Position numbers and translations under genes: made by a program. The notes beneath the pieces were generated by a model that worked only from the letters and a program-made list of their open reading frames with translations, ran no database searches and had not been told where the DNA came from. A stretch of 64,000 nucleotides of DNA from Candidatus Levyibacteriota bacterium. GTDB taxonomy: Bacteria; Patescibacteriota; Microgenomatia; Levybacterales; UBA12049. Below, piece after piece: positions 30,005 through 47,970 of this stretch; position 1 is the first letter of the stretch; every line of letters starts with the position of its first letter. Where the stretch lies: assembly GCA_016199085.1 (NCBI GenBank), contig JACQHJ010000003.1:38676-102675 (forward strand). The letters run 5' to 3'.

Positions 30005-30027
30005 GCTTATAGTTTATGATATAATAT

Positions 30028-32817
30028 GTGCTCATGAGCGCTATTGAAACACAAAGTGGGCAACATGGAATTGATTATTCTCATTATCCACATTTACATG
30101 TAGAAGATTCTCCAAGAAAAGTAATGGAGATTAAATCGGTCATGCCTGCAAACTTTAGAGCAAGAGGATTAATGGATATAGGTTGCGATGCAGGAGTAAT
30201 AACAAAATCTGTTGGACAACTAATAGGGGCTGAAAGGGTTGACGCCGTAGAACCGTCAGAGGACGCCATTTCCTATGCTAGGGATAATTTACAAATATTT
30301 CCATATGGTCAAGTGCACCATATGGAATTTACAAAATTTAATCCAAGCAATAAGCCAGACCTTACTATGCTCATAGATGTGTTAGAGCATTTAGATAATC
30401 CAGCTGAAGCACTTAAAAAAGCAGCTGCTCTTACAAGATTTTCAATTATTAGAACTCCACTTGAGGGGAGCATGGCCGTACAGATTCACCAAAGATTATT
30501 CGGAGAAGATATACAAGCTTTAATGGAGCAAAGATATGGGCATATTCATCACTATACAAAGCAAGGATTAAAAGACTTAATTGAAGATAACGGATTTGAT
30601 ATTGTAAGAGAATCTATTACAAGAATTCCTCAAGGGGCAACAATTTTAGATAGAAGAATAAGTAAAATATTAGAATCGACAGTTTGGAGGTTGTTAAGAA
30701 GTAAATATCCTGACTTATGGGGAGGGTTTTATGTTGCGTTTGCAAAAAGTAGAGAAAGACAAGTTTTAGAAGATGATGTATATCAAAAAATACAAGGTGC
30801 AATAAATCAAGTTTTAGGAGAGTCAAACGTAGTTTCTGTTATTGTATTTGGATCAACAACGGCTGATAGAGACAAAACTCACTCAGATTATGATTTCACT
30901 GTAATTGCTCGCGATTTAAATAGAGACATTAATCAGAGAGAGCAAGCTTCACCTACGATAAAAAAAGTTCTTCAAGATGAGGGAATAAAACAACTATGTG
31001 CGTTCAATATTTACTCTCCTGAAGAATTTGCCTCAGCTGCAAGAAAGGGATCTTGGTTGGTTGAGACTATGAAGACAAACAATAGGATTGTATATGATCC
31101 TGAAGGATTTATGGCTATGGCTTTAGGTGTTACAGCTCCAAACGTTTCTCAAACAGGAGAATTTTCATGGAATGGAGTATCCCACGAGTCAGAGACTCAT
31201 GTACAAGAGGTAATTCAAAGATATAATCGGTTATCACATATAATCTCTCCTATTGACCAAAAAATGGCTAACTACTATAGAAGAGAGGCAATAAGAGGTC
31301 AATTAATATTGAGACTATTTGAGCACGGTGAATATGATACTAGAGGGTCAATTTTTTCACTTGCAAAGAAATTAAGGTATAAGTATGGAGCGCAGCTAGA
31401 TCTACAAAACTTACAGGTTGAAGATTTTTATCAAGAGATTGAGGGTAAGAAAAGAATATTAGATTATGATAGTTCAAATCTTCATTTAAGAATTGCAGAT
31501 GAATTAAATGCTCAAGGATTACATTTAGATGCTCTTGCCCACACTTACCATGCATTAAAAGCAGTTTATTTAAGGTCATTACATAAAAGCGGAAGGTATA
31601 TCGTTGAAGGAGAAATAACTCAATTATTTGTTAAAGAATTTGCTCATATTTTACCTAAAGAAGTAGTTGACTTAATTTTTGCAAATTCATTCAAAGCAGA
31701 ACAAATACTAGGAAGGTCAGGATTTACAACTTTCGACTTAGATAAAGAAGGCTCACCGCTATATGAAGATCAAGTTAACCAAGGGAACAATTACGAGACA
31801 ATTCAAAATAATCTAAGATCAATTATTAATAGTTTGGGCGCAAAAGAAGAAATCTTAAAAAGCAGCACTTCTCCTAAAATTTCCATAGTAATTGCAACAT
31901 ATAATAGGCCTGATAAGATCATTAACTGCATAACAGCTTTAAATACTTTATTAATTCCCGATGATCAAGTAGAGTTAATCGTTGTTAACGATGGATCTAC
32001 TGCCGAATACGATGAGGCATCAATTATTAACTCAAGTAAATTTCCTGTTAAATACGTTGCAAAAGAACACTCAGGAATATGTGGAACAAAAAATGAAGGA
32101 ATTCATCAAAGCCAAGGCGATTATGTAGCGTTTTTAGATGATGACATGGTTACCTCTCCATTCTGGTTAATCAATTTAGTGGCTGGTTTTAAAAACGAAA
32201 GAATTGCAGGAGTAGGATCAACAAACCTAACATATCCTGATAATAACCCAATCTCTGAATATGCTGATTATAGGGAATTAGCTAGGAGAGCATTCAAAGA
32301 CGAATCAGGTGAAATATTAAATGTTTTAACAGGAAGCGCCTGTATTAGAAGAGACGTTTTGCTTCAAGTTGGAGGGTTCAACATGAGACAGTCAGAGCTT
32401 GGTGTAGGATTTGGTGGAGACGATGTTGACTTAACATGGAGAATTAGAAATGCCGGATATTCATTAAATCATGTTAATGAAGCAGTGTGCTTCCATAATC
32501 ATAGGGCAGATCTTGGGTCACTAATTAAGCAGCATGTTGGGTACGGTGAAGGAACAATGTTTCATTGTCTTGATACACAAAGAGATCCTGAATCATTGGG
32601 TATTCCGAGTCCTGACTACATCTCAGTAGCCAAAGACTTATTGGCATATACCTATCTTGAAGTGCCCAAAAGAATGATTAGATCATATAAAGACGGATTA
32701 GGCTTAATAAGATCACTTCAGTATCCTTTATTAGACTTATTAAGAAGGGGAAGTTATGATGTAGGTATACTAAAAGCAAAAAGATTTAAAACAGCCTTAG
32801 ACAAATTTAATAAATAA
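30028..32817 (+). CDS. Multidomain fusion: class I SAM-dependent methyltransferase, then a Pol-beta-type nucleotidyltransferase domain, then a helical domain, then a family-2 glycosyltransferase
   Basis: DIGCDAGVIT (methyltransferase motif I), VIVFGSTTADRDKTHSDYDFTVIA (GS...DxD nucleotidyltransferase motif), and a C-terminal ISIVIATYNRPD...VVNDGS...FLDDD GT2 A-domain. Confidence 0.7.
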   Translation: MLMSAIETQSGQHGIDYSHYPHLHVEDSPRKVMEIKSVMPANFRARGLMDIGCDAGVITKSVGQLIGAERVDAVEPSEDAISYARDNLQIFPYGQVHHMEFTKFNPSNKPDLTMLIDVLEHLDNPAEALKKAAALTRFSIIRTPLEGSMAVQIHQRLFGEDIQALMEQRYGHIHHYTKQGLKDLIEDNGFDIVRESITRIPQGATILDRRISKILESTVWRLLRSKYPDLWGGFYVAFAKSRERQVLEDDVYQKIQGAINQVLGESNVVSVIVFGSTTADRDKTHSDYDFTVIARDLNRDINQREQASPTIKKVLQDEGIKQLCAFNIYSPEEFASAARKGSWLVETMKTNNRIVYDPEGFMAMALGVTAPNVSQTGEFSWNGVSHESETHVQEVIQRYNRLSHIISPIDQKMANYYRREAIRGQLILRLFEHGEYDTRGSIFSLAKKLRYKYGAQLDLQNLQVEDFYQEIEGKKRILDYDSSNLHLRIADELNAQGLHLDALAHTYHALKAVYLRSLHKSGRYIVEGEITQLFVKEFAHILPKEVVDLIFANSFKAEQILGRSGFTTFDLDKEGSPLYEDQVNQGNNYETIQNNLRSIINSLGAKEEILKSSTSPKISIVIATYNRPDKIINCITALNTLLIPDDQVELIVVNDGSTAEYDEASIINSSKFPVKYVAKEHSGICGTKNEGIHQSQGDYVAFLDDDMVTSPFWLINLVAGFKNERIAGVGSTNLTYPDNNPISEYADYRELARRAFKDESGEILNVLTGSACIRRDVLLQVGGFNMRQSELGVGFGGDDVDLTWRIRNAGYSLNHVNEAVCFHNHRADLGSLIKQHVGYGEGTMFHCLDTQRDPESLGIPSPDYISVAKDLLAYTYLEVPKRMIRSYKDGLGLIRSLQYPLLDLLRRGSYDVGILKAKRFKTALDKFNK

Positions 32818-32832
32818 AGATACAATTAACAA

Positions 32833-33393
32833 ATGATTATTACTTCATATTTTGTTGGAATTTTACTTGATGATATATTTATTGATTTGTATAATGAAAT
32901 AGGTCAATATTTATCAGACAATAAAATTAAACATTTAATTACTCTTCAAAATAAATCTAGTCTACATATTACACTTTATTATTTTAAGAAAGATATTGAT
33001 AAAGAAACTATAAGCAGTATTCTACTTGATATAAAAACAATTAAGATTCCTCTTATTAAAATTGATGAGGTTAAATATTTTAAGAATAATAATAAATATT
33101 TGTTATGTTACTTAAATTGCGATAAGCAGAAAATTTTTGAAAAAATAAATTCTTATTTTGCGCAAAAATACAAAAATGATCAAGTATTAGATAATCAATA
33201 CCAATATATTCCTCATATTTCATTTTTTAAGATAAACGATCAAATTAATTTTTTAAGACATAAAGAATCAATCGAAAAAATTATATACAAACATATTAAA
33301 TTAATAGATAATAAAAGAGTATTAGACTCAGTTAGGCTATTTAAGGTTAATTCAAAAACAGACCCAGAAACTCAAATCCCCATGTATACTTGA
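32833..33393 (+). CDS. 2H phosphoesterase superfamily (LigT-like) protein
   Basis: Two H-x-T/S motifs, SLHITLYYF and PHISFFK, spaced as in the 2',5' RNA ligase family. The gene is very AT-rich. Confidence 0.45.
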   Translation: MIITSYFVGILLDDIFIDLYNEIGQYLSDNKIKHLITLQNKSSLHITLYYFKKDIDKETISSILLDIKTIKIPLIKIDEVKYFKNNNKYLLCYLNCDKQKIFEKINSYFAQKYKNDQVLDNQYQYIPHISFFKINDQINFLRHKESIEKIIYKHIKLIDNKRVLDSVRLFKVNSKTDPETQIPMYT

Positions 33394-33435
33394 AATCTAT
33401 TGTTGTATTTGCTATACTATAGGTTAAATTTTGGT

Positions 33436-34257
33436 ATGAATGTTAAAATTAACAATATAATAGCGTCAAATAAAAAGCCTTTTATTTTAATTGCAGGGCC
33501 CGATTCGATTGAGTCATTAGACCATGCAATGCTTATGGCTAAGAGCATTAATAAAATTGCAAAACAATTTCAAATTCCCTATGTATTTAAAGCTTCATAC
33601 GATAAGGCAAATAGAACTTCTGTTACTTCTTTCCGTGGGGTCGGTATGGAAGAAGGAGTAAAAATTCTAACTAAAATTCAAGACACTCTTAAAATTCCGG
33701 TTACGACTGATGTCCATACCGTAGAACAGGCAGAATATGTTGGTAAATTTATAAATTTAATACAAGTGCCAGCGCTTTTAAGCAGGCAGACGGACTTATT
33801 AGTTGCAGCAGGAAAAACAAAAAAGGCAGTGAATATTAAAAAGGGACAATTTATTGCACCTCAAAATGCAAATAACTTAATAGGAAAAGTTACATCGACG
33901 GGAAATACAAACGTATTAATAACAGAAAGAGGAACAACCTTTGGTTACAATGATGTAGTAACTGATATGCGTGGATTAGAAATAATGAAAAGGTTCGGTT
34001 ACCCAGTAATATTTGATGCTTCCCATACAGTTCAATTTCCATCAAATCTAGGAAATAAATCAGGTGGAGATAGAAGTTTAATTCCAGCTTTAGCAAAAGC
34101 AGCAATTGCTGTTGGAATTGCGGGCATATTCATGGAGATACATAATAATCCTTCCAAGGCACCTGTAGATGGATTAAGTTCTTTAGATTTGAAGGATCTT
34201 AAAGGATTATTGAGAACATTAAAGTCTATAGATAAAATAGTTAAGAATTATGAATAA
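33436..34257 (+). CDS. kdsA: 3-deoxy-8-phosphooctulonate (Kdo-8-P) synthase
   Basis: KASYDKANRTSVTSFRGVGMEEGVKIL matches KdsA FKSSFDKANRSS..SYRGPGLEEGMKIF. The length is about 275 aa. I placed the start at the MNVKINN ATG at 33436. Confidence 0.85.
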   Translation: MNVKINNIIASNKKPFILIAGPDSIESLDHAMLMAKSINKIAKQFQIPYVFKASYDKANRTSVTSFRGVGMEEGVKILTKIQDTLKIPVTTDVHTVEQAEYVGKFINLIQVPALLSRQTDLLVAAGKTKKAVNIKKGQFIAPQNANNLIGKVTSTGNTNVLITERGTTFGYNDVVTDMRGLEIMKRFGYPVIFDASHTVQFPSNLGNKSGGDRSLIPALAKAAIAVGIAGIFMEIHNNPSKAPVDGLSSLDLKDLKGLLRTLKSIDKIVKNYE

Positions 34258-34864
34258 AGATTTAATAATAAAAGCTGGAAAAGCAGTGCTAAAAAATGCT
34301 GCAAGAAATATATTAATTACAGAAAAGAAACTAGACAATAATTTCGTTGAAGCAGTAAATATTCTAAAACGAAGAAAGGGTAAGATAATTGCTGTTGGTA
34401 TTGGGAAATCAGGGATAATAGCTAATAAATTTTCTTCAACTATATCTAGTACAGGAAACCTTTGCATATTCGTTCACCCAACCGAAGCATTTCACGGAGA
34501 CTTTGGAAAAATTAATGAAAAAGATGTCTTAGTAATTTTTTGCCATAGTGGTGAAACAAAAGAAATTATCGATTTCTTAATGTTTTGTAAACAAAAAAAT
34601 AAAAATATTAAGATTATATCTATTACCTCAAAATTTGATTCAACTATTTCACTTATGTCAAATGTAACTTTAACTACTTGGGTAGAAGAAGAGCATGCAG
34701 ATCCAAGATTTAAGTTGATTCCGACAACAAGTGCTTCTGTAACATTGGCCTTATCAGATGCTTTAATAATATCTCTGCAGACAATTAACAAATTTCAAGC
34801 ACATAGATTCTATAAAAATCACCCTGGAGGACATATTGGTGAAATATCAAGAAACTATAATTAA
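34250..34864 (+). CDS. SIS-domain arabinose-5-phosphate isomerase (KdsD/KpsF-type, single SIS domain without CBS)
   Basis: GKIIAVGIGKSGIIANKF...FVHPTEAFHGDFGKI...FCHSGETKEI closely follows the KdsD SIS motifs (GKSG, FVHPGEAAHGDLG, SNSGES). Confidence 0.75.
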   Translation: MNKDLIIKAGKAVLKNAARNILITEKKLDNNFVEAVNILKRRKGKIIAVGIGKSGIIANKFSSTISSTGNLCIFVHPTEAFHGDFGKINEKDVLVIFCHSGETKEIIDFLMFCKQKNKNIKIISITSKFDSTISLMSNVTLTTWVEEEHADPRFKLIPTTSASVTLALSDALIISLQTINKFQAHRFYKNHPGGHIGEISRNYN

Positions 34865-35525
34865 TAACTCCCTACCTAAATCATTCATTTTTGACATGGA
34901 TGGTGTATTAATTGATAGTGAGTCTGCCTGGGTTCCTTTCCAAGATGCATTCTCAACCTCATTATTTGGCCTAGAAATATATAAAAAAGTTGGTGCCTCA
35001 GTAGGAATAACAATAAACGACATTTATAAAAAGGCAAGTAGATTTGGTTTTTCAATGAATATGGATCAATATTATTCTAGATATGATCAGCAAGCAATTG
35101 AGGTGTATAAAAATGCTAAGCCGACAAAGGAAATAAAGAAATTGGTAACTTTCTTAAAACATAGGGGATTTAAAATAGGGCTTGTTTCATCCTCAAGAAA
35201 AACTTGGATTAAATTTGTACTAAATAAACTCGATTTAGAAGGGCTATTTGATGACATTTTATCTATAAATGATGAGAAAATTGAATCAAAACCAAAACCA
35301 ACTGCATATAGCAAAATAATTAACAAACTTGGTGTAAAAGAATCTCAGGCTATTGTTCTAGAAGATACAAATAATGGAATTAATTCTGCTAAAAAAGCTG
35401 GTGCAATTGTAATAGGTTTTCAAGAAAATATTCCTAATAATTACATACAGAAAAACGCTGATTACTATGCTATCAATGTAAATGATGTTATAAATGTTGT
35501 AAATAGATTAATAGATGGCAGGTGA
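34836..35525 (+). CDS. HAD-superfamily hydrolase (subfamily IA), candidate sugar-phosphate phosphatase
   Basis: Motif I FIFDMDGVLIDSE plus downstream HAD motifs. It overlaps the stop codon of the kdsD-like gene. Confidence 0.75.
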   Translation: MVKYQETIINNSLPKSFIFDMDGVLIDSESAWVPFQDAFSTSLFGLEIYKKVGASVGITINDIYKKASRFGFSMNMDQYYSRYDQQAIEVYKNAKPTKEIKKLVTFLKHRGFKIGLVSSSRKTWIKFVLNKLDLEGLFDDILSINDEKIESKPKPTAYSKIINKLGVKESQAIVLEDTNNGINSAKKAGAIVIGFQENIPNNYIQKNADYYAINVNDVINVVNRLIDGR

Positions 35526-36339
35526 AAGAAAAGATTTACCAACTCCAAAGCTTGCAACTGCAAGAGATGCATATGATTCATATGCTAAATACTATGACGA
35601 ATCAACTAATTGGTTTGATCAAGATCTTCCTTTTTATTCCAGATTACTGCAAACAACTGTACCGCCGTTTATTGAAGTAGGCTGTGGAACTGGACGAGTA
35701 CTCAATTACTTATTGACATCATCTGGAGCTAATAAACCAAAGGGGGAATCTCCTGCCTACATAACTGGTGTTGATATATCAGAGGAGATGCTTGAAGTTT
35801 GTAGAAGAAAAGCTAAAAAATTTATTGATAAAAAAGTATTAATATTAATAAATCATGATCTCGCTGAAGAACCGTTGCCAGATGTAAGTTTTAATGCTGC
35901 GCTTGTGACATTTTACGTTATGAACTATATACCGGAGGAATTACAAGCTAGATTTTTAGAAAATATTTATTCAATGTTAAATCCTAGAGGAATTATAGCA
36001 ATAAATTTATTCTATCCTAGAATACAAAGAGAACCATCTATCGCAAATGCATGGAAAAGCCATTCTATACCCACGCGCGAAGGACCAGTTTCTTTCGATG
36101 AAAGACAAAGATTAATAGAAGACGTAGAAGAAAGAGAGCTAATATTTAATCCAACCATGTTTGGAGGTGAAAGAATTTTCTTAAGGAGATTTTATATTTC
36201 TCCAACCAAGGGGAAAACGTTGCTTGAGCAAGCTGGTTTTACTGACGTAGAGCACTTAAAAGGTTTTAATAGGCACAACCTTGGAAATTTCGAGGAAGAT
36301 CCCAATTCTTATAGCTTTACATTAATTGCTAGAAAATAA
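35515..36339 (+). CDS. Class I SAM-dependent methyltransferase
   Basis: Motif I EVGCGTGRV. Confidence 0.7.
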   Translation: MAGERKDLPTPKLATARDAYDSYAKYYDESTNWFDQDLPFYSRLLQTTVPPFIEVGCGTGRVLNYLLTSSGANKPKGESPAYITGVDISEEMLEVCRRKAKKFIDKKVLILINHDLAEEPLPDVSFNAALVTFYVMNYIPEELQARFLENIYSMLNPRGIIAINLFYPRIQREPSIANAWKSHSIPTREGPVSFDERQRLIEDVEERELIFNPTMFGGERIFLRRFYISPTKGKTLLEQAGFTDVEHLKGFNRHNLGNFEEDPNSYSFTLIARK

Positions 36340-36465: not shown

Positions 36466-36500
36466 AGTTGTGCTGAGCATACCGCTCTCGACCCATTACA
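36466..36500. repeat. Intergenic repeat copy A (consensus about tTGtGCTGAGCATaCCGgTCTaGAACC), one of three
   Basis: Seen directly by aligning 36468-36500, 37168-37200 and 37706-37740. Confidence 0.5.
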
Positions 36501-36552
36501 TCATTATAGCGGTCGGGCTGAAGCTGAATAAGGCAATATCAGAATATTTAAT

Positions 36553-37137
36553 TTATGGCTTAATTTTAATACCTGACTTTTCCAAAAGAGGAATTATAAT
36601 TTCCATTGGCAATCCATGAGTAAGACCTGTTAATGAACCGTTAACTTTTGAAATTGTTGTTAATCCATATGTATTTGCAGGACAAAATGCACCAGACCAA
36701 GTAAGCACGGGGTATTTATTTATAACTTCTTCTATCTCTTCTTCACTAAACTTTCTTGTTGAAAAATCAACTACAATACATGTTGAGAAATCAATACTAT
36801 TTTGTTTATCTAAATAACAAACACCTGCATAAAGCTTAGAATTTTCATTCCCGGATTCTTCTCGCAGCATTTGTTTTGCTTCTTCAATAGTTTGAGGCTT
36901 TTCATAGACTTTTCCATTATGAACTGCAAAAGAATCTGCCGAAATAATTATTCCTTTATGTTTCATAGCGACATTTTCAGCTTTTGCTCGGGCTATTTTT
37001 TCTGCCCTCTTTGCTAAATCGCTATCTCTTATTAATTTTTCATCTATATTGGCTGGAATAATTTCATAGGGGATATTTAATACATCCATTAACATTTTTC
37101 TGTTGGCTGAGCCCGAAGCTAAAATAATTCTTTGCAT
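36553..37137 (-). CDS. maf: Maf-like nucleoside triphosphate pyrophosphatase
   Basis: N-terminal IILASGSANRKMLM (the Maf signature) and a length of about 190 aa. Confidence 0.8.
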   Translation of the reverse strand: MQRIILASGSANRKMLMDVLNIPYEIIPANIDEKLIRDSDLAKRAEKIARAKAENVAMKHKGIIISADSFAVHNGKVYEKPQTIEEAKQMLREESGNENSKLYAGVCYLDKQNSIDFSTCIVVDFSTRKFSEEEIEEVINKYPVLTWSGAFCPANTYGLTTISKVNGSLTGLTHGLPMEIIIPLLEKSGIKIKP

Positions 37138-37165
37138 TTTATTTAAAATTATTATTTATCAAAAC

Positions 37166-37200
37166 CACGTTTTTGTGCTGAGCATACCGGTCTAGAACCG
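37166..37200. repeat. Intergenic repeat copy B
   Basis: The sequence tgtgctgagcataccggtctagaacc is seen directly. It lies 30-60 bp upstream of the maf start. Confidence 0.5.
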
Positions 37201-37214
37201 TTTTGTCGTTATAA

Positions 37215-37664
37215 CTACTTGTCTAGTTTGAATATGCTTATATCTTCTTCTGATAAATTATCCTTCTCCCAAAATTTGAGCCTGTGCCAAATAGTTTGTC
37301 CTTTCATATCTTTTTGAATTGCGACTACTAGCTTTTTATAGAAATCGTCACTATCGCCGCCTGCTGGTTTTTTGCTAGAATGCGCAGCGATAAATTTATT
37401 AGCTAAGCGAATAACAGTTGCCGAAGCATAAAGGGGAGCATGAGTATAAAGTTCTTCCATGAAATTCTTTTGTCTTTCCTTATCAATCCATCCCTCAAAA
37501 AAACCAATTATATTTTCGAGAAATTTTTTATATTGATCTTCTTTCCTTTCTCTTGCGTAAAGCTCCCGCTCTCTGTTTCTTTCGAATCGATCATTAAGAT
37601 ATGCGCCAATAAGGCCACCCAATCCTAACGATCCGACTAGGGCAATAAGTATTTCAGAATTCAT
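37215..37664 (-). CDS. Hypothetical protein with N-terminal TM
   Basis: ORF only. Confidence 0.4.
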   Translation of the reverse strand: MNSEILIALVGSLGLGGLIGAYLNDRFERNRERELYARERKEDQYKKFLENIIGFFEGWIDKERQKNFMEELYTHAPLYASATVIRLANKFIAAHSSKKPAGGDSDDFYKKLVVAIQKDMKGQTIWHRLKFWEKDNLSEEDISIFKLDK

Positions 37665-37705
37665 TTATTATTAAAACTGCAGACACGCTCATGATTGTGT
37701 TTGTT

Positions 37706-37765
37706 TTTGCTGAGCATCTCGGTTTAGAACCACCTTATCTTTATTGCTATTCTAGATTGCCTACT
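37706..37765. repeat. Intergenic repeat copy C, followed by an att-like TATTCTAG...CCTACT segment
   Basis: The sequence tttgctgagcatctcggtttagaacc...gctattctagattgcctact is seen directly. Confidence 0.5.
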
Positions 37766-38321
37766 CTTGTTTAACGCCTATTGTGCGTTGAGACTCTAAT
37801 TTATTGGCCGCTTCTAAAAAAGATGCTCTATCATTCAAGTCTATATCTTTACTCATTTCCTTAAAACTTTCTAATTGTTCTTTTGTTTGAGCTATTAAGA
37901 TGTCTTTATGTTTTAGATAAAACCACAGACGAAATGCAGTCATGAAGCCTGTAATCTCAATGGTTAACTCTTGATACATCCTAATATCGTCCCAGATAAC
38001 AAATTCGCTTGATGCTGGATTAAATCTCAGTAATTTATCAGGATCACTATTTGCATGTTTAAAAAAATTATAGGGTTCATTAAGTTTTTTTAGCACAAAG
38101 GCCTGTTTCTCTGGTTTTATGTATCCATCCATCTGGGATTTAAAAGATTTTATGCCTGAGGCTTTTCCTATTCCAGATAGTATTTCTTCGGCAGCGCAAG
38201 CAGAAAGGTGAATTATTACAAAATCTCCATAATTAAAAAACAATTTAATAGCATGCTCTAATTCTCTTTTTGCAACATCTAGCTTTGAGACGTTTATGAT
38301 TTTTTTAGTTTCTTCGTCCAT
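37761..38321 (-). CDS. Hypothetical protein
   Basis: ORF only. Confidence 0.4.
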   Translation of the reverse strand: MDEETKKIINVSKLDVAKRELEHAIKLFFNYGDFVIIHLSACAAEEILSGIGKASGIKSFKSQMDGYIKPEKQAFVLKKLNEPYNFFKHANSDPDKLLRFNPASSEFVIWDDIRMYQELTIEITGFMTAFRLWFYLKHKDILIAQTKEQLESFKEMSKDIDLNDRASFLEAANKLESQRTIGVKQE

Positions 38322-38333
38322 ATACTATTCAAT

Positions 38334-38422
38334 CTTGCTGGCTACTTACGAAAAATGTCGAACTTCGTTTCTTAAATAGTCGCTTCGCTCCTACTATTTT
38401 AGAGCTCGGCCTCGCCTCGCTC
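38334..38422. repeat. Inverted repeat X (89 bp), a perfect reverse complement of 43622..43710; begins with the 7-bp core CTTGCTG
   Basis: Direct base-by-base comparison of the two segments. Confidence 0.9.
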
Positions 38423-38439
38423 TTTTGTATTTTTTGCCA

Positions 38440-38900
38440 GAACGAACAAACCTTTTCGCGCGATTTTTATTATACCAAATAACCCGCCCGCCCGACGGAA
38501 AGGAGCGGCGACCCCGCCTTTATGCGAGAGGACTTCCTAGGGGAAGTCTCGCCAGTATCTTTACTTTTTTAAAACTCTTTACAGTCTCTTACTCGCCCCG
38601 CTTCGGCGGGGCTAAATTTCTTCTAACTTAAAACCGCCTGCAGTCAGCGGGGTACTTCCGCTTTTCGCCCCCGCCGATGTTATTCTACCCCCTATTTAGT
38701 TTACGATCTTTGGGATAAACCATATTGGCTCGCCCCGCAAGGTTTCAAGTAAAAGAAGTTTCCGCGGGGCTCGCTTTGGTCGGACTGCCTATACCAAGTC
38801 GGTGGTAAATAAAGTTTTCCTAACGGCAGTTCTCCTTTTAAGGGCGTAATCCTCACGGTGCGGGGGCGGCGGACGCTGCCAATCATTTTTGTCTGAAAAA
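38440..38900 (+). ncRNA. Candidate structured non-coding RNA of unknown class. It is a GC-rich island of about 460 nt in AT-rich DNA with multiple perfect hairpins, including a UUCG tetraloop (GCCCCGC-UUCG-GCGGGGC)
   Basis: There is no plausible ORF; the six-frame ORFs are R-rich artefacts. Hairpins include gacttcc-tagg-ggaagtc, gccccgc-ttcg-gcggggc, and gccccgc...gcggggc. Confidence 0.3.
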
Positions 38901-38988
38901 TTTGACGATAACAGACATTAATAGCTTACAAACTTACGTGAGATAACAGCCTCAAATATACTACATTCAGCCTATTTAATAGTATATC

Positions 38989-39017
38989 TTGACAATAATA
39001 GTAAGATATGTTATAAT
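38989..39017 (+). promoter_or_regulatory. Perfect sigma70-type promoter TTGACA-17 bp-TATAAT, 7 nt upstream of the ATG of the first operon gene (a near-leaderless transcript)
   Basis: TTGACA at 38989-38994, a 17-nt spacer, TATAAT at 39012-39017, and an ATG at 39025. Confidence 0.6.
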
Positions 39018-39024
39018 ACAAGCC

Positions 39025-39243
39025 ATGAAAGAAGATAGAGCACAAAGATTTAAGAGAATCGCCACATATAGAACAAACGAGGTCTTGGATAAGCTCAGGC
39101 TCTTAGGGAATCTCTCCAACAAAGCTAATTATGAATATACAGAGGACGAGGTAAACAAAATATTTTCAGCTATAGAGATTCAGTTAAGAATTGCTAAGGC
39201 TAAATTTTCTTCTTCAAAGAAAAAGAAAGAGTTTTCGCTATGA
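39025..39243 (+). CDS. Small hypothetical protein (72 aa), first gene of the four-gene operon
   Basis: The ORF from the ATG at 39025 overlaps the next gene by 4 nt (ATGA). Confidence 0.45.
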   Translation: MKEDRAQRFKRIATYRTNEVLDKLRLLGNLSNKANYEYTEDEVNKIFSAIEIQLRIAKAKFSSSKKKKEFSL

Positions 39244-39845
39244 GTAATGAAGAATTAACAAATGTTGATATCGTCTTGTACTCGCTTTATTTGCTTGGTG
39301 GTAGTAGAAGAAAGATTTTTACCGAAGATATCGCCAAAAAGTGTTTTGAATTAGCACAAGATCGTTTTTCTTGGAGAAGATATCCAGAATACCCAGATAT
39401 TGAGCCTGCAAGAAAATCTTTAATGGAAGCAAGAAACCAGAAAGACTTAATAAGCGGCAGGGCAGGAGAAGTTAAGGGTACAAAACCATCTGATGGATGG
39501 ATTTTCTCTCCTGAAGGTGTGTTCTGGATAGAAAAAAATAAATCACGTATTGAAAAAGCGCTAGGCAAAAAACAAAAACCTATCAAGAGAACAGAACTTT
39601 CCAAAAAAATTGCCGAGCTTGAATCTTCAAGCGCATTCTTAGAATTTTTGAAAGAAAAGACGTGCAACAATATCAAAGCTTATGAATTCACTGATTTTCT
39701 AAACGTTAGCCTTGATACCCCATCATCAGTAATCAAGAGTAGAATTCAAACTGTTAAGGCTCTTGCAGCATCAGAAAAAAGAGAAAAACTTCTTACATTT
39801 ATTGCGCTTTGCGAAAAAAATTTTTCCAAATTAATTAATAATTAA
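39240..39845 (+). CDS. Hypothetical protein (201 aa), second gene of the operon
   Basis: Translationally coupled to both flanking genes. Confidence 0.5.
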   Translation: MSNEELTNVDIVLYSLYLLGGSRRKIFTEDIAKKCFELAQDRFSWRRYPEYPDIEPARKSLMEARNQKDLISGRAGEVKGTKPSDGWIFSPEGVFWIEKNKSRIEKALGKKQKPIKRTELSKKIAELESSSAFLEFLKEKTCNNIKAYEFTDFLNVSLDTPSSVIKSRIQTVKALAASEKREKLLTFIALCEKNFSKLINN

Positions 39846-39846
39846 C

Positions 39847-42096
39847 ATGAATCCAAATTCTAATATAATTTTTGGCCAACCACAAAAATTTGATATATCT
39901 GATAGATACTTTCTTCAAACAGCTGAGAGCGCAATGAAAGGAGATGTAATAAGGGGGTTAGTTGAATTAATTACCAATGCTGATGACAGTTACGAAGAAG
40001 TTGAGTCAAAAGGATTAACTAGTAGCGGGAAAATACTCATTGAAATAATAAGAAAAAAGCAAGGCAAAAATAGTTTAATTAAGGTCGTTGATAAAGCTGA
40101 AGGAATGAAGCTGGAAGAAATGGTTATTAAGTTAAAAAGGGTTGGGGGGATGACAAGCCATTTTATTGAAAGCAAAGGATTAAAAACGAGAGGATTAATG
40201 GGTAGAGGTAGCAAAGAATGTGTGGTTTTTGGTCCTTTAACTTTCAAATCAATAAAAGACAATATTTATTCTGAAGTTGTTTTAAAAAAACCTGCAATCT
40301 TTATTCCGCAAATCGAAAGACCTGTAACAGAAGTCGACAGAGTAAAGCTAGATATTAAAGGGAATGGAACAGTTGTGGAATTAAAAGTTGAACCACATTT
40401 TCAAATTCCGAGCCATAACTCTTTAGTAGAGAATTTACCAAAATATTACAGTCTGAGGGATATTACATCCAATCCCAAAAGAATAATTGAGTTAAGTGAC
40501 GGTAAAAGATCTGATAGGCTAGTTTACAATCCTAAAAAAGGCACTGTTGTACTAGATGAAGTAATTAATGTTATGGAATATCCTGGCGCGCAGGCTCATC
40601 TCATTCTAATAAAAACGCCTGAATCAATTGAGGTTGAAAGTAATTCTCCTTTTTGGGAAGGTGGAATATTAATTCAAAGCGGGCATGCAGTTCACGGCGT
40701 AACGGGATTCACTAGAGATATCGAGAATAATCCTTATTTTGTACATTATTTTGGAAGATTGGTTTGTACTTATATTGATATTCTTGCAATAGAATATGAA
40801 GAATATGAAAAAAATAATCAAGCGCATACCGCGTTAAACCCATCGAGAATTATCGAACCATTAAGAAAGGAAGGATTATTCTCTAACCATCCCTTTACTA
40901 AGATTTTGTATAGAGAAGCTTCACGGAGAATAAAAAATCTTTTGAAAAAAGACGAGGAACTCTCTACCTCAATGATTAAAGAAATAGAAAATAAAAAAAC
41001 AAAAGATAGACTCAAAAGGCTGGCTGACGCAGTTAGCAGGTTTATTAAAGAAAGGACTGAAGATTTGGAAATAGAAGATGATAACTATCTTTCTGGTTCT
41101 GACATTCCCGTTGGTGGGATGATTGTGATACCTGGTGGACTTAGAGTTCCAATTGGTGAAGAAAAAAGGTTTTATGTTTATGTTAAACCAAAAATACAAC
41201 AGGATAGATTTGTTACGCTTTTTACTCAGTCCAGCGCAATAGCCCTAAGCTCTAAAAAGGAAGAGCTAATTGAAAGGAATGATGGAACTTTTTACGCCCA
41301 GTTCTCTGTAAAAGGAGTTGATTATGTCAATGACGCTATAGTTAAGGTAAATTGGTCGAATATAGAAAATAATGTTCCTGTTTCAGTAATTAAAAAGGAA
41401 GAAGATCATCCATTTATTACTGACTTCTCTTTTGAAAAAAATAAATATAATTTACGTGAAGGTAAACAGAAGGATATTTATTTATTGGCTAAATGGCCTG
41501 ATTTTGTCCACGGATGGGCGGAATGTACTATTGAGACAAACAAAAATGAATTTTTAACAGTTTTGGGTAATAAAACTAGATTAAAATATAAACGATTTAA
41601 CGATGGGACACAGATGGCCATAGGAAAAGTCAAAATATATGGGGTAAAAACGGGAGGCCCAACCATAATTAAAACGTCTATAAATAATAAAACAGTGCAA
41701 ACAGAAATAAATGTTCTTCCAAAATTGGAGTTAGGACATAATATCGAGATCAAATTGGTTGATGAAGAAGCGGGAGCACAGAGAGCAGTTTGGGATGGGG
41801 ACATTTTAAAAATAAATACGAGACATAAAACTATTCATAGATATTCCGGTCCACCACCTGACTATTTAGGACAAGATTCAATTCATTTTCATTTGTTGTT
41901 GGCAGAATTGATAGCAGATAATGTAGCTAGGCGAGTTTTAGAATTAAATGCTGAAAAAAATATACATAAATATCAAGATATGGATATATATGGTTTTTAT
42001 GATATACACAGAAAGTATGTAAATGATTTCTTAGAAGTTGCCCATAACATTCAAATTCCCGATAATGAACTTGTAAATATTGTCCTTAATTCTTAG
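39847..42096 (+). CDS. Large protein (749 aa) with a putative N-terminal GHKL-type (Bergerat-fold, MORC/Hsp90/MutL-like) ATPase domain, then a coiled coil and a beta-rich C-terminal region
   Basis: N-box-like ELITNADDS, G1-box-like VVDKAEGMKLEEM (a degenerate DxGxG), and G2-like TRGLMGRGSK. I recognised nothing in the remainder. Confidence 0.5.
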   Translation: MNPNSNIIFGQPQKFDISDRYFLQTAESAMKGDVIRGLVELITNADDSYEEVESKGLTSSGKILIEIIRKKQGKNSLIKVVDKAEGMKLEEMVIKLKRVGGMTSHFIESKGLKTRGLMGRGSKECVVFGPLTFKSIKDNIYSEVVLKKPAIFIPQIERPVTEVDRVKLDIKGNGTVVELKVEPHFQIPSHNSLVENLPKYYSLRDITSNPKRIIELSDGKRSDRLVYNPKKGTVVLDEVINVMEYPGAQAHLILIKTPESIEVESNSPFWEGGILIQSGHAVHGVTGFTRDIENNPYFVHYFGRLVCTYIDILAIEYEEYEKNNQAHTALNPSRIIEPLRKEGLFSNHPFTKILYREASRRIKNLLKKDEELSTSMIKEIENKKTKDRLKRLADAVSRFIKERTEDLEIEDDNYLSGSDIPVGGMIVIPGGLRVPIGEEKRFYVYVKPKIQQDRFVTLFTQSSAIALSSKKEELIERNDGTFYAQFSVKGVDYVNDAIVKVNWSNIENNVPVSVIKKEEDHPFITDFSFEKNKYNLREGKQKDIYLLAKWPDFVHGWAECTIETNKNEFLTVLGNKTRLKYKRFNDGTQMAIGKVKIYGVKTGGPTIIKTSINNKTVQTEINVLPKLELGHNIEIKLVDEEAGAQRAVWDGDILKINTRHKTIHRYSGPPPDYLGQDSIHFHLLLAELIADNVARRVLELNAEKNIHKYQDMDIYGFYDIHRKYVNDFLEVAHNIQIPDNELVNIVLNS

Positions 42097-42138
42097 CTGT
42101 GAAGAGAGAGTAACGAGGATATAATCCAGTTAGAATTT

Positions 42139-43425
42139 ATGCCAAAGAAATCATACAGAATAGGTGAATTACCTCAAGAGCTTAAAACAAAAAGTGTTTT
42201 TTATTACGTTAACGAAAAGCAAGGTTTAAAAGTAAAATCAAAAGAAGTATTCAAAAATGGAGAAAAAGTTGTTCACTATCCATTTAAAAGGGATGGCACT
42301 CCTAAATATAGAAATATAAGAAAAATTACATATGAAAATATGCCAGAGAATTTACCAAGAGGATTTTATAAAGAATGGACTAAAGGTTATGGTTTTACTC
42401 GTGTATATAATCCCTTAATTTATCGACTTGATGATGCATTAAAAATTCAAGAAGTTATAGTTAGCAAAAACATAATCACAAAATTTGAAAATGGAAAACT
42501 ATATTTGAACTCTGATAAATTAGACTCATCTTATCCCAAAATAGATTTGCTTTTAAAAAAACACAATGTTGAAATTGATAATTTAGCTAATGATATTTTG
42601 TCGAAGTATTTCCCTCAAACTTTCAAGAATAAATCTCAGAAATACATAAAAGGAAGCTTAGCGCAATTTATAGATAAAAATGTAACTCAAATCTCTGATT
42701 TATCAGAAGCAGACACGCAATCCTTATTTGATCTTGCCTCTAGAATTTCAAAAGATGATTTTCTAGAAAGTAAAACCAGTGTATTAAAGACTAAAGAAAA
42801 AATTGAAGAAGTTTATATTGAAGAAGTAATTGAAGAATTTGAAAAATTATTATCTAGAAAGAATTTGACTAAAAATTTAGAAGAAAGATGGCAGAAGTTT
42901 TTTACGCAATATAATTGGATCTTTTCTCAATTATTTTCATTTCCAGTTTTAATTTTTAAAGATAAGGCTTATGTGGGAGGGAAAGGTATAGAAAATGCAA
43001 ATGGGAAAATCTCTGATTTTATCTACAAAAATAAATTAACAAACAATATTGCTTTTATAGAAATTAAGACTCATAAAACTCCAATACTTATTGATAAACC
43101 ATATAGAGGAAATGATGTTTATTCTGTAAGTAAAGACATGAGCGGAGCTGTTAATCAGGTATTAGATCAAAGAGATAATTTTCAGAAAGAATTTTATTCT
43201 CTTAAATCTAAAAGTAAAAATAAGAATTTTGAATCTTACAATTCTAAGTGTATCATTATCACTGGTAGCTTAAGTAAGCTCTCGGAAGAAGAAAAGAAAT
43301 CCTTTGATTTAATGAGAAGCAATAGTAGAGATGTAGACATAATCACATTTGACGAAGTGTTAGAGAAAATTAAAGGACTAGAATCTTTACTTTTTGGTTC
43401 TAAGCAAAAATCTACTGCAAATTAA
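42139..43425 (+). CDS. Protein (428 aa) with a C-terminal DUF4263/Shedu-like PD-(D/E)xK nuclease domain
   Basis: DFIYKNK...IAFIEIKTHK (D...ExK), QVLDQ...Y, and C-terminal IIITGS...DIITFDEV resembling the DUF4263 C-terminus. Confidence 0.45.
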   Translation: MPKKSYRIGELPQELKTKSVFYYVNEKQGLKVKSKEVFKNGEKVVHYPFKRDGTPKYRNIRKITYENMPENLPRGFYKEWTKGYGFTRVYNPLIYRLDDALKIQEVIVSKNIITKFENGKLYLNSDKLDSSYPKIDLLLKKHNVEIDNLANDILSKYFPQTFKNKSQKYIKGSLAQFIDKNVTQISDLSEADTQSLFDLASRISKDDFLESKTSVLKTKEKIEEVYIEEVIEEFEKLLSRKNLTKNLEERWQKFFTQYNWIFSQLFSFPVLIFKDKAYVGGKGIENANGKISDFIYKNKLTNNIAFIEIKTHKTPILIDKPYRGNDVYSVSKDMSGAVNQVLDQRDNFQKEFYSLKSKSKNKNFESYNSKCIIITGSLSKLSEEEKKSFDLMRSNSRDVDIITFDEVLEKIKGLESLLFGSKQKSTAN

Positions 43426-43500
43426 TACACCTTGCGTTATTGTAAAAGTTTTGTTTTTTGCTATAGTAAAACGGTAGTCAAACTTTTCTTTTCGGTTTTT

Positions 43501-43553
43501 TAATGGCCGCATTGGACAGATCCGAAAAGGGTTTGACTACACCAGTGCGGCCA
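43501..43553. other. 13-bp-stem hairpin (aatggccgcattgg...ccagtgcggccatt) immediately downstream of the operon; candidate terminator or recombination site
   Basis: Inverted repeat with one mismatch and a 24-nt loop, seen directly. Confidence 0.3.
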
Positions 43554-43621
43554 TTTGAGTACTTTAAAATTTTTGCGTTTTTCTCCCAAAGACGATTTGG
43601 GAACGAGTCGACAGTTTTTGA

Positions 43622-43710
43622 GCGAGGCGAGGCCGAGCTCTAAAATAGTAGGAGCGAAGCGACTATTTAAGAAACGAAGTTCGACATTTTTCGTAAGTAG
43701 CCAGCAAGCT
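43622..43710. repeat. Inverted repeat X' (reverse complement of 38334..38422)
   Basis: Direct comparison. Confidence 0.9.
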
Positions 43711-43809
43711 AGAATAATTAAACCTACGAGGACCTAAACCCTCCGCCGGAAAACTTTCAGAAAGAACGGCAAATCCGGCCTTTTTGAAATCAGCAGACAG
43801 TCGTCGAAA
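43704..43809. repeat. Inverted repeat Y' (reverse complement of 45245..45349; 93 bp perfect plus an extension with 2 mismatches). It abuts and overlaps X' at the shared core CAGCAAG
   Basis: Direct comparison. Confidence 0.9.
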
Positions 43810-43849
43810 GAAAAAGAAGAGAAAAACGCAAAAATTTAAGAATAAGAAC

Positions 43850-45406
43850 ATGATTAAATACATAGCATACTGTAGGAAATCAACAGATGAACCGGACAGA
43901 CAAATTTTGTCTATTGAAGCTCAAGTTGCCGAACTTGAGGAATTCGCCGCAAAAGAAAATTTGAAAATTGTTTTATTTATTACCGAAAGTAAAACCGCCA
44001 AAGAGCCGGGAAGAGAAAAATTTGCTCAAGTTTTAGAAATGATAGAAAAAGGAGAAGCAAGCGGCATAATCTCCTGGCATCCTGATAGATTAGCCAGAAA
44101 TTCTGTTGATGGCGGAAAGATTATCTATTTACTTGATACCGGAAAACTTTTGGATTTAAAATTTCCCTCTTTTTGGTTTGAGAATACTCCACAAGGAAAA
44201 TTTATGTTATCGATCGCCTTTGGGCAGAGTAAGTATTATGTCGATAATCTTTCCGAAAATGTTAAAAGAGGAAACAGGCAAAAATTGAGACGCGGTGAAT
44301 GGCCTAATCAAGCGCCTTTTGGTTATTTAAATATAAATAAGAAAATCGAAGTTGATAAAAAACGAGCAAGGTTTGTTAAAAAGGCATTTCAACTTTACTC
44401 AACCGGTGCTTATGGTTATGCCGATATCCGCAAATTTTTCACTCAAAACAAAATTTTCAATAAATCAGGCCATAAACTTCACTTAGATAAAATAAAAAAG
44501 ATTTTAACAGACCCTTTTTATTATGGCCTGATGAAGTTTTGCGGCGAATTATACGAAGGAAGCCACCTGCCCCTAATTTCTAAGAAACTTTTTGATAAAT
44601 GCCAAGAAATTGTTAAGCTAAAGAGCAGGAAAGTTAAAAATAATAAACATCTTTTTAATTTCTTGGGAATGATTAAATGCGGCGAGTGTGGCTCTATGAT
44701 TACTGCCGAAAAACATACAAAGATTTACAAAAGAACTAATAGAAGGGTTGAATATGTTTATTACCGCTGCTCCAAAAAGAAAGGTAAATGCTTGCAAAGA
44801 TATATTAGTAAAGAAGAAATTGAGGAACAGATAAGAAATATCCTTTTGCAAGCTTCTTTAACCCAATTCGCCGCCAAAAAGTTTCTTGAATGGGCAGAAA
44901 AAGACATAGCCAAAGAAAAACAACAATCATCAAGCGTTACTTTGGATTACAAAGACCAAATTAAAGATACTGATGAAAAACTAGAGCGGTTACTTGATGG
45001 TTATTTAGATAAGGTTATTTCTCCCGAAGATTACCAAAAGAAAAAGAACGAACTTGTTGATACAAAATCGGTTATTAACTCCAAAATTAAGGATATTTCT
45101 ACAAACGGAGTTGAATGGCTCGAACCTTTTCAAGAATTCGTAAATAACGCACTGCAGTGCGGAAAAATCGCACGGGCAAAAAATACAAACGAAGAATTGG
45201 CATTCTTCGCAAAAACTGTCGGCTCGAACTTCTCTTTACTCAATCGGCGACTGTCGGCTGATTTCAAAAAGGCCGGATTTGCCGTTCTTTCTGAAAGTTT
45301 TCCGGCGGAGGGTTTAGGTCCTCGTAGGTTTAATTATTCTAGCTTGCTGTCGGACTTGGATTCGAACCAAGATTACCAGATTCAGAGTCTGGATGCCTAC
45401 CATTAG
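43850..45406 (+). CDS. Large serine recombinase (resolvase catalytic domain, recombinase domain, zinc ribbon and coiled coil)
   Basis: YCRKSTDEPDRQ...SIEAQ (catalytic Ser context), SWHPDRLARN, recombinase-domain GEWPNQAPFGYLN, and zinc ribbon CGECGS...YYRCSKKKGKC. The start is set at the ATG at 43850, because the upstream part of ORF 43784 lies in the inverted repeat. The last 50 codons are encoded by repeat Y and the antisense of tRNA-Gln. Confidence 0.9.
   Translation: MIKYIAYCRKSTDEPDRQILSIEAQVAELEEFAAKENLKIVLFITESKTAKEPGREKFAQVLEMIEKGEASGIISWHPDRLARNSVDGGKIIYLLDTGKLLDLKFPSFWFENTPQGKFMLSIAFGQSKYYVDNLSENVKRGNRQKLRRGEWPNQAPFGYLNINKKIEVDKKRARFVKKAFQLYSTGAYGYADIRKFFTQNKIFNKSGHKLHLDKIKKILTDPFYYGLMKFCGELYEGSHLPLISKKLFDKCQEIVKLKSRKVKNNKHLFNFLGMIKCGECGSMITAEKHTKIYKRTNRRVEYVYYRCSKKKGKCLQRYISKEEIEEQIRNILLQASLTQFAAKKFLEWAEKDIAKEKQQSSSVTLDYKDQIKDTDEKLERLLDGYLDKVISPEDYQKKKNELVDTKSVINSKIKDISTNGVEWLEPFQEFVNNALQCGKIARAKNTNEELAFFAKTVGSNFSLLNRRLSADFKKAGFAVLSESFPAEGLGPRRFNYSSLLSDLDSNQDYQIQSLDAYH
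45245..45349. repeat. Inverted repeat Y, ending in the core CTTGCTG, which overlaps the 3' end of tRNA-Gln
   Basis: Direct comparison with 43704..43809. Confidence 0.9.
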
Positions 45407-45417
45407 CAGATCCGACA
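45347..45417 (-). tRNA. tRNA-Gln (anticodon CUG), 71 nt, CCA not encoded
   Basis: Manual cloverleaf: acceptor UGUCGGA/UCCGACA (U1:A72), D-stem UGCU/GGCA with loop AAUGGUA, anticodon stem CCAGA/UCUGG with loop CUCUGAA, T-stem CUUGG/CCAAG with loop UUCGAAU, and discriminator G. Confidence 0.8.
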
Positions 45418-45526
45418 ATGCACTACAATTTTACTAGAATTTATGTTAAAAAGCTAATAAATTTTATGTCGCACAATAATATTGATACTTTTCAAAAGGG
45501 GAGTGGATTTTGTAAAACGATAATTC

Positions 45527-46591: not shown

Positions 46592-46700
46592 CAACGATTG
46601 GCATTGCCTATCCATATTTTGCCGGAGCAATTGCATCTTTAGTTTGCCTTGCGTTAACTTCACAAATCTTAAGAAAAGGAATTAAAAAAGAATCTGCTTT

Positions 46701-47930: not shown

Positions 47931-47970
47931 ATGCTTGCATTGTACAGTAATCTTTTTCTATACTCAATAT

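Follow-up and report, generated by a model that had tools for sequence, protein, structure and literature searches.

The closest described relatives of the locus reported here are arrays of mobile segments that share a recombination site. In staphylococci, staphylococcal cassette chromosome (SCC) elements form arrays at the 3′ end of rlmH and are moved by the Ccr large serine recombinases; recombinase-less pseudo-elements are mobilised in trans, and the relation between enzyme and site is proven. Integrative mobile elements exploiting Xer (IMEX), such as the CTX-phi arrays at dif, use the host site dif and the enzyme XerCD. Tandem islands at tRNA genes, bounded by attachment-site (att) repeats that are partial tRNA copies, are described by the Islander concept (PMC4383910), and the tycheposons of Prochlorococcus form tandem islands at tRNA genes as well (bioRxiv 10.1101/2020.12.28.424599). 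Here we describe three copies of a 40-nt element, which we call E, in a 64-kb stretch of a Candidatus Levyibacteriota contig (JACQHJ010000003.1; the window, by which we mean the whole stretch analysed). The copies follow three consecutive genes on the 3′ side of a tRNA-Gln gene. We propose that E is probably the element-borne arm, together with the crossover core, of an attachment site through which cassettes build up at tRNA-Gln. The arrays combine known kinds: tRNA-anchored tandem islands, arrays like those of integrons or of attC-site clusters that have no integron-integrase (CALIN), and SCC-like serine-recombinase arrays. The literature was searched for integrons, cassettes and tRNA islands in phyla of the candidate phyla radiation (CPR), and neither such arrays nor integrons were found to be described there.

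Like integrons and CALIN, E arrays are polar successions of co-oriented site repeats, each ending a mostly single, promoter-poor, diverse accessory gene, with an apparent crossover at the 3′ edge of the repeat and cassettes that lack a recombinase. They differ in that E is conserved by sequence and has neither R″/R′ boxes nor a single-strand hairpin, in that their anchor is not attI but the tRNA-Gln 3′ end, in that no IntI was found, and in their partial mimicry of a tRNA. With tandem tRNA islands they share the tRNA hotspot, the apparent displacement of older insertions outward by new ones, scattered co-oriented att repeats and, in some elements, a large serine recombinase. The repeats of those islands, however, are near-exact copies of tRNA 3′ ends and each element normally has its own integrase, whereas E is a distinct, family-wide 40-nt element with 17–19 of 40 nt identical to the tRNA, and its units are ~1 kb, single-gene and recombinase-free, with the putative crossover at the tRNA's extreme 3′ end. 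In SCC arrays, too, elements with and without a recombinase stack up in tandem behind a single conserved gene, at its 3′ end, bounded by co-oriented direct repeats, but their target is a protein gene, their ~18-bp repeats are identical to the target end and their units span many kb; the enzyme that we suggest for E is a candidate. IMEX resemble E cassettes as recombinase-less elements that carry an imperfect mimic of a host site and form tandem co-oriented arrays, but E lacks the 11-6-11 organisation of dif.

A degenerate 24-nt core, TGCTGAGCATMYCGSTYTMGAMCC, matches the 64-kb window exactly three times, always on the plus strand (36471–36494, 37176–37199 and 37708–37731), and has no match in 100 dinucleotide shuffles of the window. 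The three co-oriented intergenic repeats noticed in an initial annotation of this DNA, beginning at 36471, 37176 and 37708, are thus real. A repeat search of the window extended the family to 46 nt, with 74–76% identity between copies, and a position matrix from 42 copies defined a unit of exactly 40 nt, which replaces the 27–35 bp first given for the repeat. Read on the gene strand, E is GCTATAAgGAtnaAAtGGgTCtAGACCGgtATGCTCAGCA; its consensus takes the form GCTATAAgGA...ATGCTCAGCA, and GG..TC.AGACCG..ATGCTCAGC are the invariant positions. Across the 42 copies, information content is ~0 outside the 40 nt on both sides, with the sharpest drop after CAGCA, and positions from +2 onward past the end of E carry no information. 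In the larger set of copies described below, the end of E reads CAGC(A/C/T), and in 63% of copies the next base is A; the endings CAGCCA and CAGCAA are like those of tRNA-Gln genes with and without an encoded CCA. The base after CAGC agrees between E and the local tRNA in 33/65 comparisons, which is suggestive at best. E also holds two short palindromes, GGTCTAGACC and TGCTCAGCA. A manual half-site comparison of the consensus found 10/18 positions symmetric about TCnAGA, and the crossover would lie at the 3′ edge of E, not at this centre. Attachment sites of large serine recombinases are 40–50 bp long, and their imperfect dyad symmetry is centred on the crossover dinucleotide.

The window array consists of three minus-strand genes and three repeats, each copy lying directly 3′ of one gene (Table 1), and a profile made from the copies of relatives finds copies A, B and C in the window and nothing else. 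Copy C, the tRNA-proximal and most divergent of the three, lies 13 nt 3′ of the gene 3 stop codon, and 43 nt separate its end from the start codon of gene 2. The first base of copy B is the last base of the gene 2 stop codon (a 1-base overlap), and the maf start codon is found 38 nt past the CAGCA end of this copy. Copy A, the tRNA-distal copy, ends the array 42 nt 3′ of the maf stop codon; beyond it lies a convergent methyltransferase gene, whose 3′ end it faces, so that no gene follows it. The anchor, tRNA-Gln(CTG), is the sole tRNA of the window. Homologues of maf, gene 2 and gene 3 were sought in the other E loci and none was found.

E belongs to a large family in Microgenomates. A scan of genomes, one per species, with a pattern of 18 invariant bases gave 69 loci, and 23 low-GC loci among these share a much longer motif. 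These 23 come mostly from Levy-, Woese-, Ames- and Gottesmanbacteria or Microgenomatus, with a few metagenome-assembled genomes labelled otherwise. The other 46 of the 69 (Pseudomonas, Halomonas and others) were rejected as high-GC chance or coding matches without the extended motif. A metagenome scan added at least 120 further loci, so that E amounts to at least 212 copies in at least 140 CPR loci from Microgenomates genomes and metagenomes. These loci were studied as contig slices, short around the matches, and are referred to by locus labels (L numbers). Pooled counts here and below are among the matches listed in the two scans. On this basis, 44 loci hold several copies and in none of them is orientation mixed, while the spacing between copies has a median of 1083 bp (interquartile range 609–1515). 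Exactly one open reading frame (ORF) of at least 60 aa is present in 45/72 inter-E intervals, and 88/120 genes between copies (73%) are co-directional with E, the remaining 32 being opposite. A profile search of the genome-scan loci found up to seven copies per 8-kb slice. The cargo is diverse and accessory, comprising NUDIX (8), GNAT (4), beta-lactamase-like, HAD, HD, Fic and PIN proteins, methyltransferases, a GH130-like protein and many unknowns, and Maf fits the 'house-cleaning enzyme' flavour of this repertoire.

Copies of E were also seen on low-GC contigs with unrelated labels, namely Bathyarchaeota (L009), Nanoarchaeota (L014), Bacteriovorax (L033), Dormiibacterota (L066) and Gammaproteobacteria (L025, L027, L039, L040 and L064). 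L009 and L039 have a common cassette that is 81% identical. Mis-binning or mislabelling of CPR contigs would probably account for them, rather than spread across domains. In viral contigs, the pattern scan gave three matches, all of them coding chance matches at 48% GC, and E was not found there.

Not all copies have the same form. About 18% (36/198) carry a conserved extension of ~100 nt on the 5′ side; such loci include L016 (3240–3358), L019 (3029–3150), L026, L028, L029, L033, L034, L043 and L068. The repeats within the extension, TGAGACA / GTCTCATTT-GTCTCATTT / TTTAGCCTCA, look like accessory protein-binding sites. Neither a fold nor an Rfam match was found for the extension, and the long form showed no significant enrichment at the first position after the tRNA (7/35 vs 2/28). 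A diverged variant, TGnTGCTCCGTG...GTTAGAAyCyATTA, adjoins a short conserved coding remnant in L030 (~2440–2485) and L064 (~5500–5560). Since the profile misses this variant, arrays may hold further, unrecognised copies of E.

The family is anchored behind tRNA-Gln. ARAGORN detected tRNA-Gln in 7/23 genome loci and 30 times in the at least 120 metagenome loci, where all other tRNAs together were detected 19 times; of the 62 tRNAs scored in E loci, 38 are tRNA-Gln. E lies 3′ of tRNA-Gln and is co-oriented with it in 35/37 cases, as well as in the window, and the distance from the tRNA end to the first E has a median of 994 bp. In L123 and L143, a 32-nt spacer and one E are all that stands behind tRNA-Gln. 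L143 comes from a relative of the window organism, and its tRNA 5′ flank has 81% identity to that of the window (45396–48831). This flank encodes an MFS transporter, a GluRS-like protein, a carboxypeptidase, an AspRS-like protein, RecJ and the CCA-adding enzyme. L079, L205 and L143 are syntenic with it, and the 3′ side differs in each. The synteny comparison called for by the initial annotation thus places maf and its neighbours in a variable region behind tRNA-Gln. In the two exceptional loci, L094 (408–570) and L161 (2583–3121), E sits 5′ of tRNA-Gln and faces away from the tRNA.

The 3′ end of E coincides with the point at which related loci part. When L097 is compared with L106, the alignment runs to the last base of tRNA-Gln and resumes at the last bases of E, and L106 therefore has a 1782-bp insert between the tRNA CAGC and the native spacer. 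L106 matches L030. The insert ends in E, and its two junctions share the 4 nt CAGC; it holds two genes, in which no Pfam recombinase domain was found. The native spacer itself, ACGGACTATAACCCTAAAGCT, stands after intact tRNA-Gln in L097, L123 and L143, after E in L023, L030 and L106, and after decayed tRNA-Gln fragments in L039, L086, L103, L112 and L144. Homology between L028 and L033 stops exactly at the end of E, and the common cassette of L009 and L039 starts there. Over all locus pairs, 40 homology endpoints fall within −10 to +9 nt of the E 3′ end, compared with ~0–7 per nearby 10-nt bin, which is a 6.3-fold excess over random positions. The co-oriented geometry in 35/37 cases, the L097/L106 pair, these breakpoints at the 3′ edge of E and the syntenic 5′ but variable 3′ side of tRNA-Gln support an earlier suggestion that the repeats are att-type junctions separating single genes at a tRNA-Gln hotspot. 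The decayed tRNA-Gln 3′ fragments (L039 at ~2470–2565, L086, L103, L112, L144 and L016) have their own pattern, aaaaaGGTTyTAATgtgg...CCCGyAGyA, and the order there is tRNA-Gln remnant, spacer ACGGACTATAACCCTAAAGCT, E copy. These fragments are evidence for a second class of insertion, with the crossover inside the tRNA body.

The last 40 nt of tRNA-Gln, which reach from the anticodon loop to the CCA position, are colinear with E, and the two have in common, in register, GG(T/G)TCnAGACC at the T-loop and CAGC(A/C)A at the end. The initial annotation had likened the TTGCTG or GTGCTG at the start of each plus-strand copy to the recombination core and had placed the GAACC segment at the T-arm. Both features are present: the last bases of tRNA-Gln are CAGCA, of which TGCTG is the reverse complement, and GAACC is in register with the T-loop. 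By hand count, the E consensus is identical to the window tRNA-Gln at 19/40 positions, and the mean across tRNA-Gln genes is 17/40. With the E profile, nhmmer found no match in tRNA-Gln at an E-value ≤1. On the E matrix, tRNA-Gln scores −19.8 bits on average, compared with −28.5 for other tRNAs, −31.5 for random DNA and +26 to +64 for true copies, and the best register is the tRNA 3′ end in 27/38 tRNA-Gln genes. The resemblance is real but weak, and would fit mimicry or a very old derivation, not recent decay. As conservation falls on the same positions of E in all loci, E does not fit neutral decay of local tRNA copies.

Structure does not seem to be what is conserved in E. In the window and 17 related loci, Rfam searches at gathering and E-value thresholds returned tRNAs only (Rfam has no attC model). 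No consensus fold of E was obtained with alifold, a single-sequence RNA fold gave z = −0.8, and no covariation was detected for the T-stem or either palindrome in 159 distinct copies. The lack of structure and covariation points to recognition of E at the DNA level.

We suggest that these arrays grow as follows. E would act as a 40-nt double-stranded DNA recognition element. Small segments, usually one accessory gene with E at its 3′ end, would insert at the extreme 3′ end of tRNA-Gln, with the crossover within ...CAGC(A/C)A. Each insertion would keep the tRNA intact, leave E at the far junction and push older insertions outward, and the outcome would be a polar, co-oriented array of the form tRNA-Gln-(gene-E)n. 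The recombinase may see a similar half-site in E and in the tRNA-Gln end, and since the cassettes lack a recombinase, they would have to be moved in trans. Some larger islands would use the same attachment site besides the small recombinase-free cassettes. In the window, the order from the tRNA would then be a serine-recombinase/Shedu island (the newest insertion), gene 3 with copy C, gene 2 with copy B and maf with copy A. E may still be an active site.

The leading candidate for the enzyme is the family of tRNA-Gln-specific large serine recombinases found at the same hotspot. An imperfect direct repeat of 15 nt bounds the window island; its core, CTTGCTG, is the reverse complement of the CAGCAAG that spans the tRNA end. 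For 60 nt the reading frame of the recombinase continues inside the convergent tRNA-Gln, so the C-terminal tail of the protein is encoded across the junction. Before the island inserted, tRNA-Gln directly abutted gene 3, and the ancestral order was therefore tRNA-Gln, gene 3, C, gene 2, B, maf, A. The recombinase has at least 7952 relatives at an E-value <1e-40, a family that is very large in CPR bacteria. In 5/5 further contexts, the 3′ end of the recombinase gene overlaps a convergent tRNA-Gln, which indicates an integrase family specific for the tRNA-Gln end, with the core CAGCAAG; the slices that represent the family are L201–L206, L079, L150 and L029. A serine recombinase lies between tRNA-Gln and the E array both in the window and in L150, and another adjoins the E array in L029, where tRNA-Gln is outside the slice. 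In L150, CAGCAA occurs 3 times in 7.2 kb, only at the tRNA end and in two E copies, and 14 nt (CAGCAAGGTTGGAT) are common to the tRNA junction and the second E junction, with the recombinase segment between them.

Table 1. Coordinates of the E copies, cassette genes, tRNA-Gln and island in the 64-kb window.
Feature	Position	Strand	Remarks
Element E, copy A	36471..36510	-	GCTATAATGATGTAATGGGTCGAGAGCGGTATGCTCAGCA; nhmmer E=5e-13
Cassette gene 1, maf (Maf-like nucleotide pyrophosphatase)	36553..37137	-	PF02545, 1e-31
Element E, copy B	37176..37215	-	GTTATAACGACAAAACGGTTCTAGACCGGTATGCTCAGCA; nhmmer E=6e-14
Cassette gene 2, 149-aa hypothetical protein	37215..37664	-	No Pfam or PADLOC match
Element E, copy C	37708..37747	-	GCAATAAAGATAAGGTGGTTCTAAACCGAGATGCTCAGCA; nhmmer E=3e-9
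Copy C flank, TATTCTAGATTGCCTACT...	37748..37770	.	Resembles reconstructed attP of island; weak, meaning uncertain
Cassette gene 3, 186-aa hypothetical protein	37761..38321	-	Homologue directly after tRNA-Gln in L079
Distal direct repeat	38326..38340	.	TATTCAATCTTGCTG; attR-type junction
Island at tRNA-Gln 3′ end, 7 kb	38341..45334	.	Shedu SduA, serine recombinase, two unknown proteins
Shedu SduA defence protein	42139-43425		
Large serine recombinase	~43850-45406		Convergent with tRNA-Gln
Proximal direct repeat	45335..45349	.	TATTCTAGCTTGCTG; attL-type junction; overlaps last 4 nt (CAGC) of tRNA-Gln
tRNA-Gln(CTG), array anchor	45346..45417	-	E copies co-oriented, on tRNA 3′ side

Several observations weigh against E as an attachment-site arm or against this enzyme. 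Conservation is found on one side of the inferred crossover only; a double-strand recombinase site needs two half-sites, and one-sided conservation is unusual. For this reason the identity of the enzyme and the present activity of E are inferred, while the data show family membership, polarity, anchoring at tRNA-Gln, the position of the junction and one empty/occupied pair. The empty and occupied states are represented by one clean pair, which could in principle reflect a deletion instead of an insertion. No relative of the methyltransferase flanking the window array exceeds 49% identity, so there is no close relative for a direct comparison of synteny. The distal arm of the window island has no significant similarity to E (p ~0.88), and five further tRNA-Gln islands with a serine recombinase contain no E, nor did a search of their far ends find E-like arms. 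Serine recombinases were seen in only 3 of ~143 E loci, where short slices would miss distant genes. Among the top families in Pfam summaries of 294 ORFs near arrays (150 + 144) there was no integrase or other recombinase family besides DDE transposases. The DDE matches (L085, L092 and L117, from the metagenome set) lie inside coding sequence, most likely at the three loci without an E-profile match, appear to be due to chance and were discounted. Clustering of 869 ORFs and inspection of recurrent ORFs of 320–345 aa revealed no recombinase either, the recurrent families being house-keeping flanks such as the DEAD-box helicase. Among the 40 window ORFs scanned, which do not include all small ORFs, the serine recombinase is the sole recombinase, with no tyrosine recombinase or IntI.

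Of the other explanations for these repeats, it seems unlikely that E is an inert scar, that is, the leftover distal junction of a decayed integrase island, derived from a displaced 3′ fragment of tRNA-Gln and now functionless. Such an origin would agree with what is known of Prochlorococcus, for one, where tandem islands anchored at tRNAs contain scattered partial tRNAs, with the displaced, decayed tRNA-Gln fragments of related arrays and with the complete serine-recombinase islands that occupy the same site, as well as with the colinearity of E with the tRNA-Gln 3′ half and the higher score of tRNA-Gln over other tRNAs on the E profile. It is difficult to reconcile with ~25 positions that are nearly invariant in ~160 distinct copies from several candidate phyla. 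Moreover, the copies resemble each other far more than they resemble any tRNA-Gln, and real decayed fragments look different, for which reasons we have given up the initial view of the repeats as decayed tRNA-Gln 3′ fragments. No recombinase pseudogene fragments were found beside E copies, the arrays are compact (E is 36–43 nt from the next start codon), and the tRNA-proximal window copy, supposedly the youngest, is the most divergent. We consider it very unlikely that E works at the RNA level, either as a tRNA-like transcript 3′ end for processing or stability or as the recognition site of a reverse transcriptase that copies cassettes to the tRNA-Gln end. E does span the tRNA equivalent of anticodon loop to CCA end and often ends in CAGCCA, its one-sided conservation and sharp 3′ edge are as expected of an RNA 3′ terminus, and most cassette genes are co-directional with it. 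Against this, neither the T-stem nor any other stem shows covariation, there is no consensus fold or Rfam family, one in four of the genes is antisense to E, and no reverse transcriptase was seen in the Pfam summaries near arrays.

An integrase-less attC cluster, in which folded single strands are recombined by an IntI encoded elsewhere, is still less probable. NUDIX, GNAT and similar cargo is typical of integron cassettes, and the co-oriented repeats 3′ of mostly single, co-directional, diverse accessory ORFs and the crossover at the 3′ edge of the repeat would be expected in a CALIN. In attC the crossover is inside R′ (GTTRRRY), and each site is therefore followed by TTRRRY. E, however, lacks both the R″ box (RYYYAAC) and the R′ box, and past the crossover no position is conserved. 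Single-stranded DNA folds of the three window copies, on both strands, gave z values of −1.2 to +1.05, no better than shuffles. The absence of covariation, with sequence rather than structure conserved across phyla, is the opposite of what is seen in attC, and no tyrosine recombinase is present among the window ORFs scanned. Least probable of all is a shared promoter or operator for the downstream gene, which the initial annotation had offered as an alternative. On the gene strand E starts with a TATAAT-like box, it contains two short palindromes, and copies B and C end within 38–43 nt of a start codon. Copy A and many copies in relatives nevertheless lie between convergent genes, with nothing to drive, and others between divergent genes. 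Orientation follows the array and not the genes, remaining constant even though 32/120 genes are opposite. Only 15/42 copies have the last T of the −10-like hexamer, a promoter and terminator scan of the gene strand found nothing at the copies, and the three copies in 64 kb are clustered.

A wider form of the attachment-site reading is possible but doubtful: that E marks a gene-capture platform of Microgenomates, analogous to integrons and mechanistically unrelated to them, in which recombinase-less single-gene cassettes, each ended by an E that mimics the tRNA-Gln 3′ half, are inserted in succession at the CCA-end position of tRNA-Gln by a trans-acting, tRNA-Gln-specific large serine recombinase or by another enzyme that needs just one conserved half-site. 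If true, the platform would be the first system of cassette arrays to work without IntI/attC, and one of the main ways in which these reduced genomes gain genes. CPR genomes are tiny, and gene acquisition in them is little understood. An active site would suggest a dedicated, integron-like capture hotspot with site chemistry unlike that of integrons. E and the tRNA-Gln end form a concrete, testable substrate pair, for which the candidate enzyme family offers thousands of members, and E is a simple sequence tag for accessory-gene arrays in metagenomes. Were E only a fossil junction, it would still map a major hotspot and the att core (CAGCAAG) of the tRNA-Gln serine recombinases.

Further observations concern the window island and the genes beside the array. 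Besides the proteins named in Table 1, the island encodes unknown proteins of 201 aa and 749 aa. Its distal end (38342–38900) is a GC-rich, non-coding stretch of ~550 nt with several strong hairpins (e.g. gccccgccgaagcggggcgag) and no Rfam match. Downstream of copy C, the motif TATTCTAG-ATTG-CCTACT, thought in the initial annotation to mirror the attP-like junction, is indeed present at 37748–37770; the similarity is weak and its meaning uncertain. No record was found for the window Maf protein when it was sought for synteny. The closest homologue of gene 3 (74% identity; L073–L078, 10001–10567) adjoins tRNA-Pro; an abhydrolase gene stands on one side and the ribosomal S9/L13 genes on the other, and there is no copy of E. 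Gene 3 therefore moves among different sites linked to tRNAs.

A low-GC (~31%) sugar-modification cluster (28847–36339) separates the last repeat of the window from a DEAD-box helicase gene (24386–25564), encoding a GT4 glycosyltransferase, a 929-aa methyltransferase-GT2 fusion, a KDO8P-synthase-like protein, SIS and HAD proteins and a methyltransferase. The helicase orthologue is inside the array in L039, and in L114 it is found just past the last E of the array, after one small ORF. In view of these positions, the sugar cluster may belong to the same variable region.

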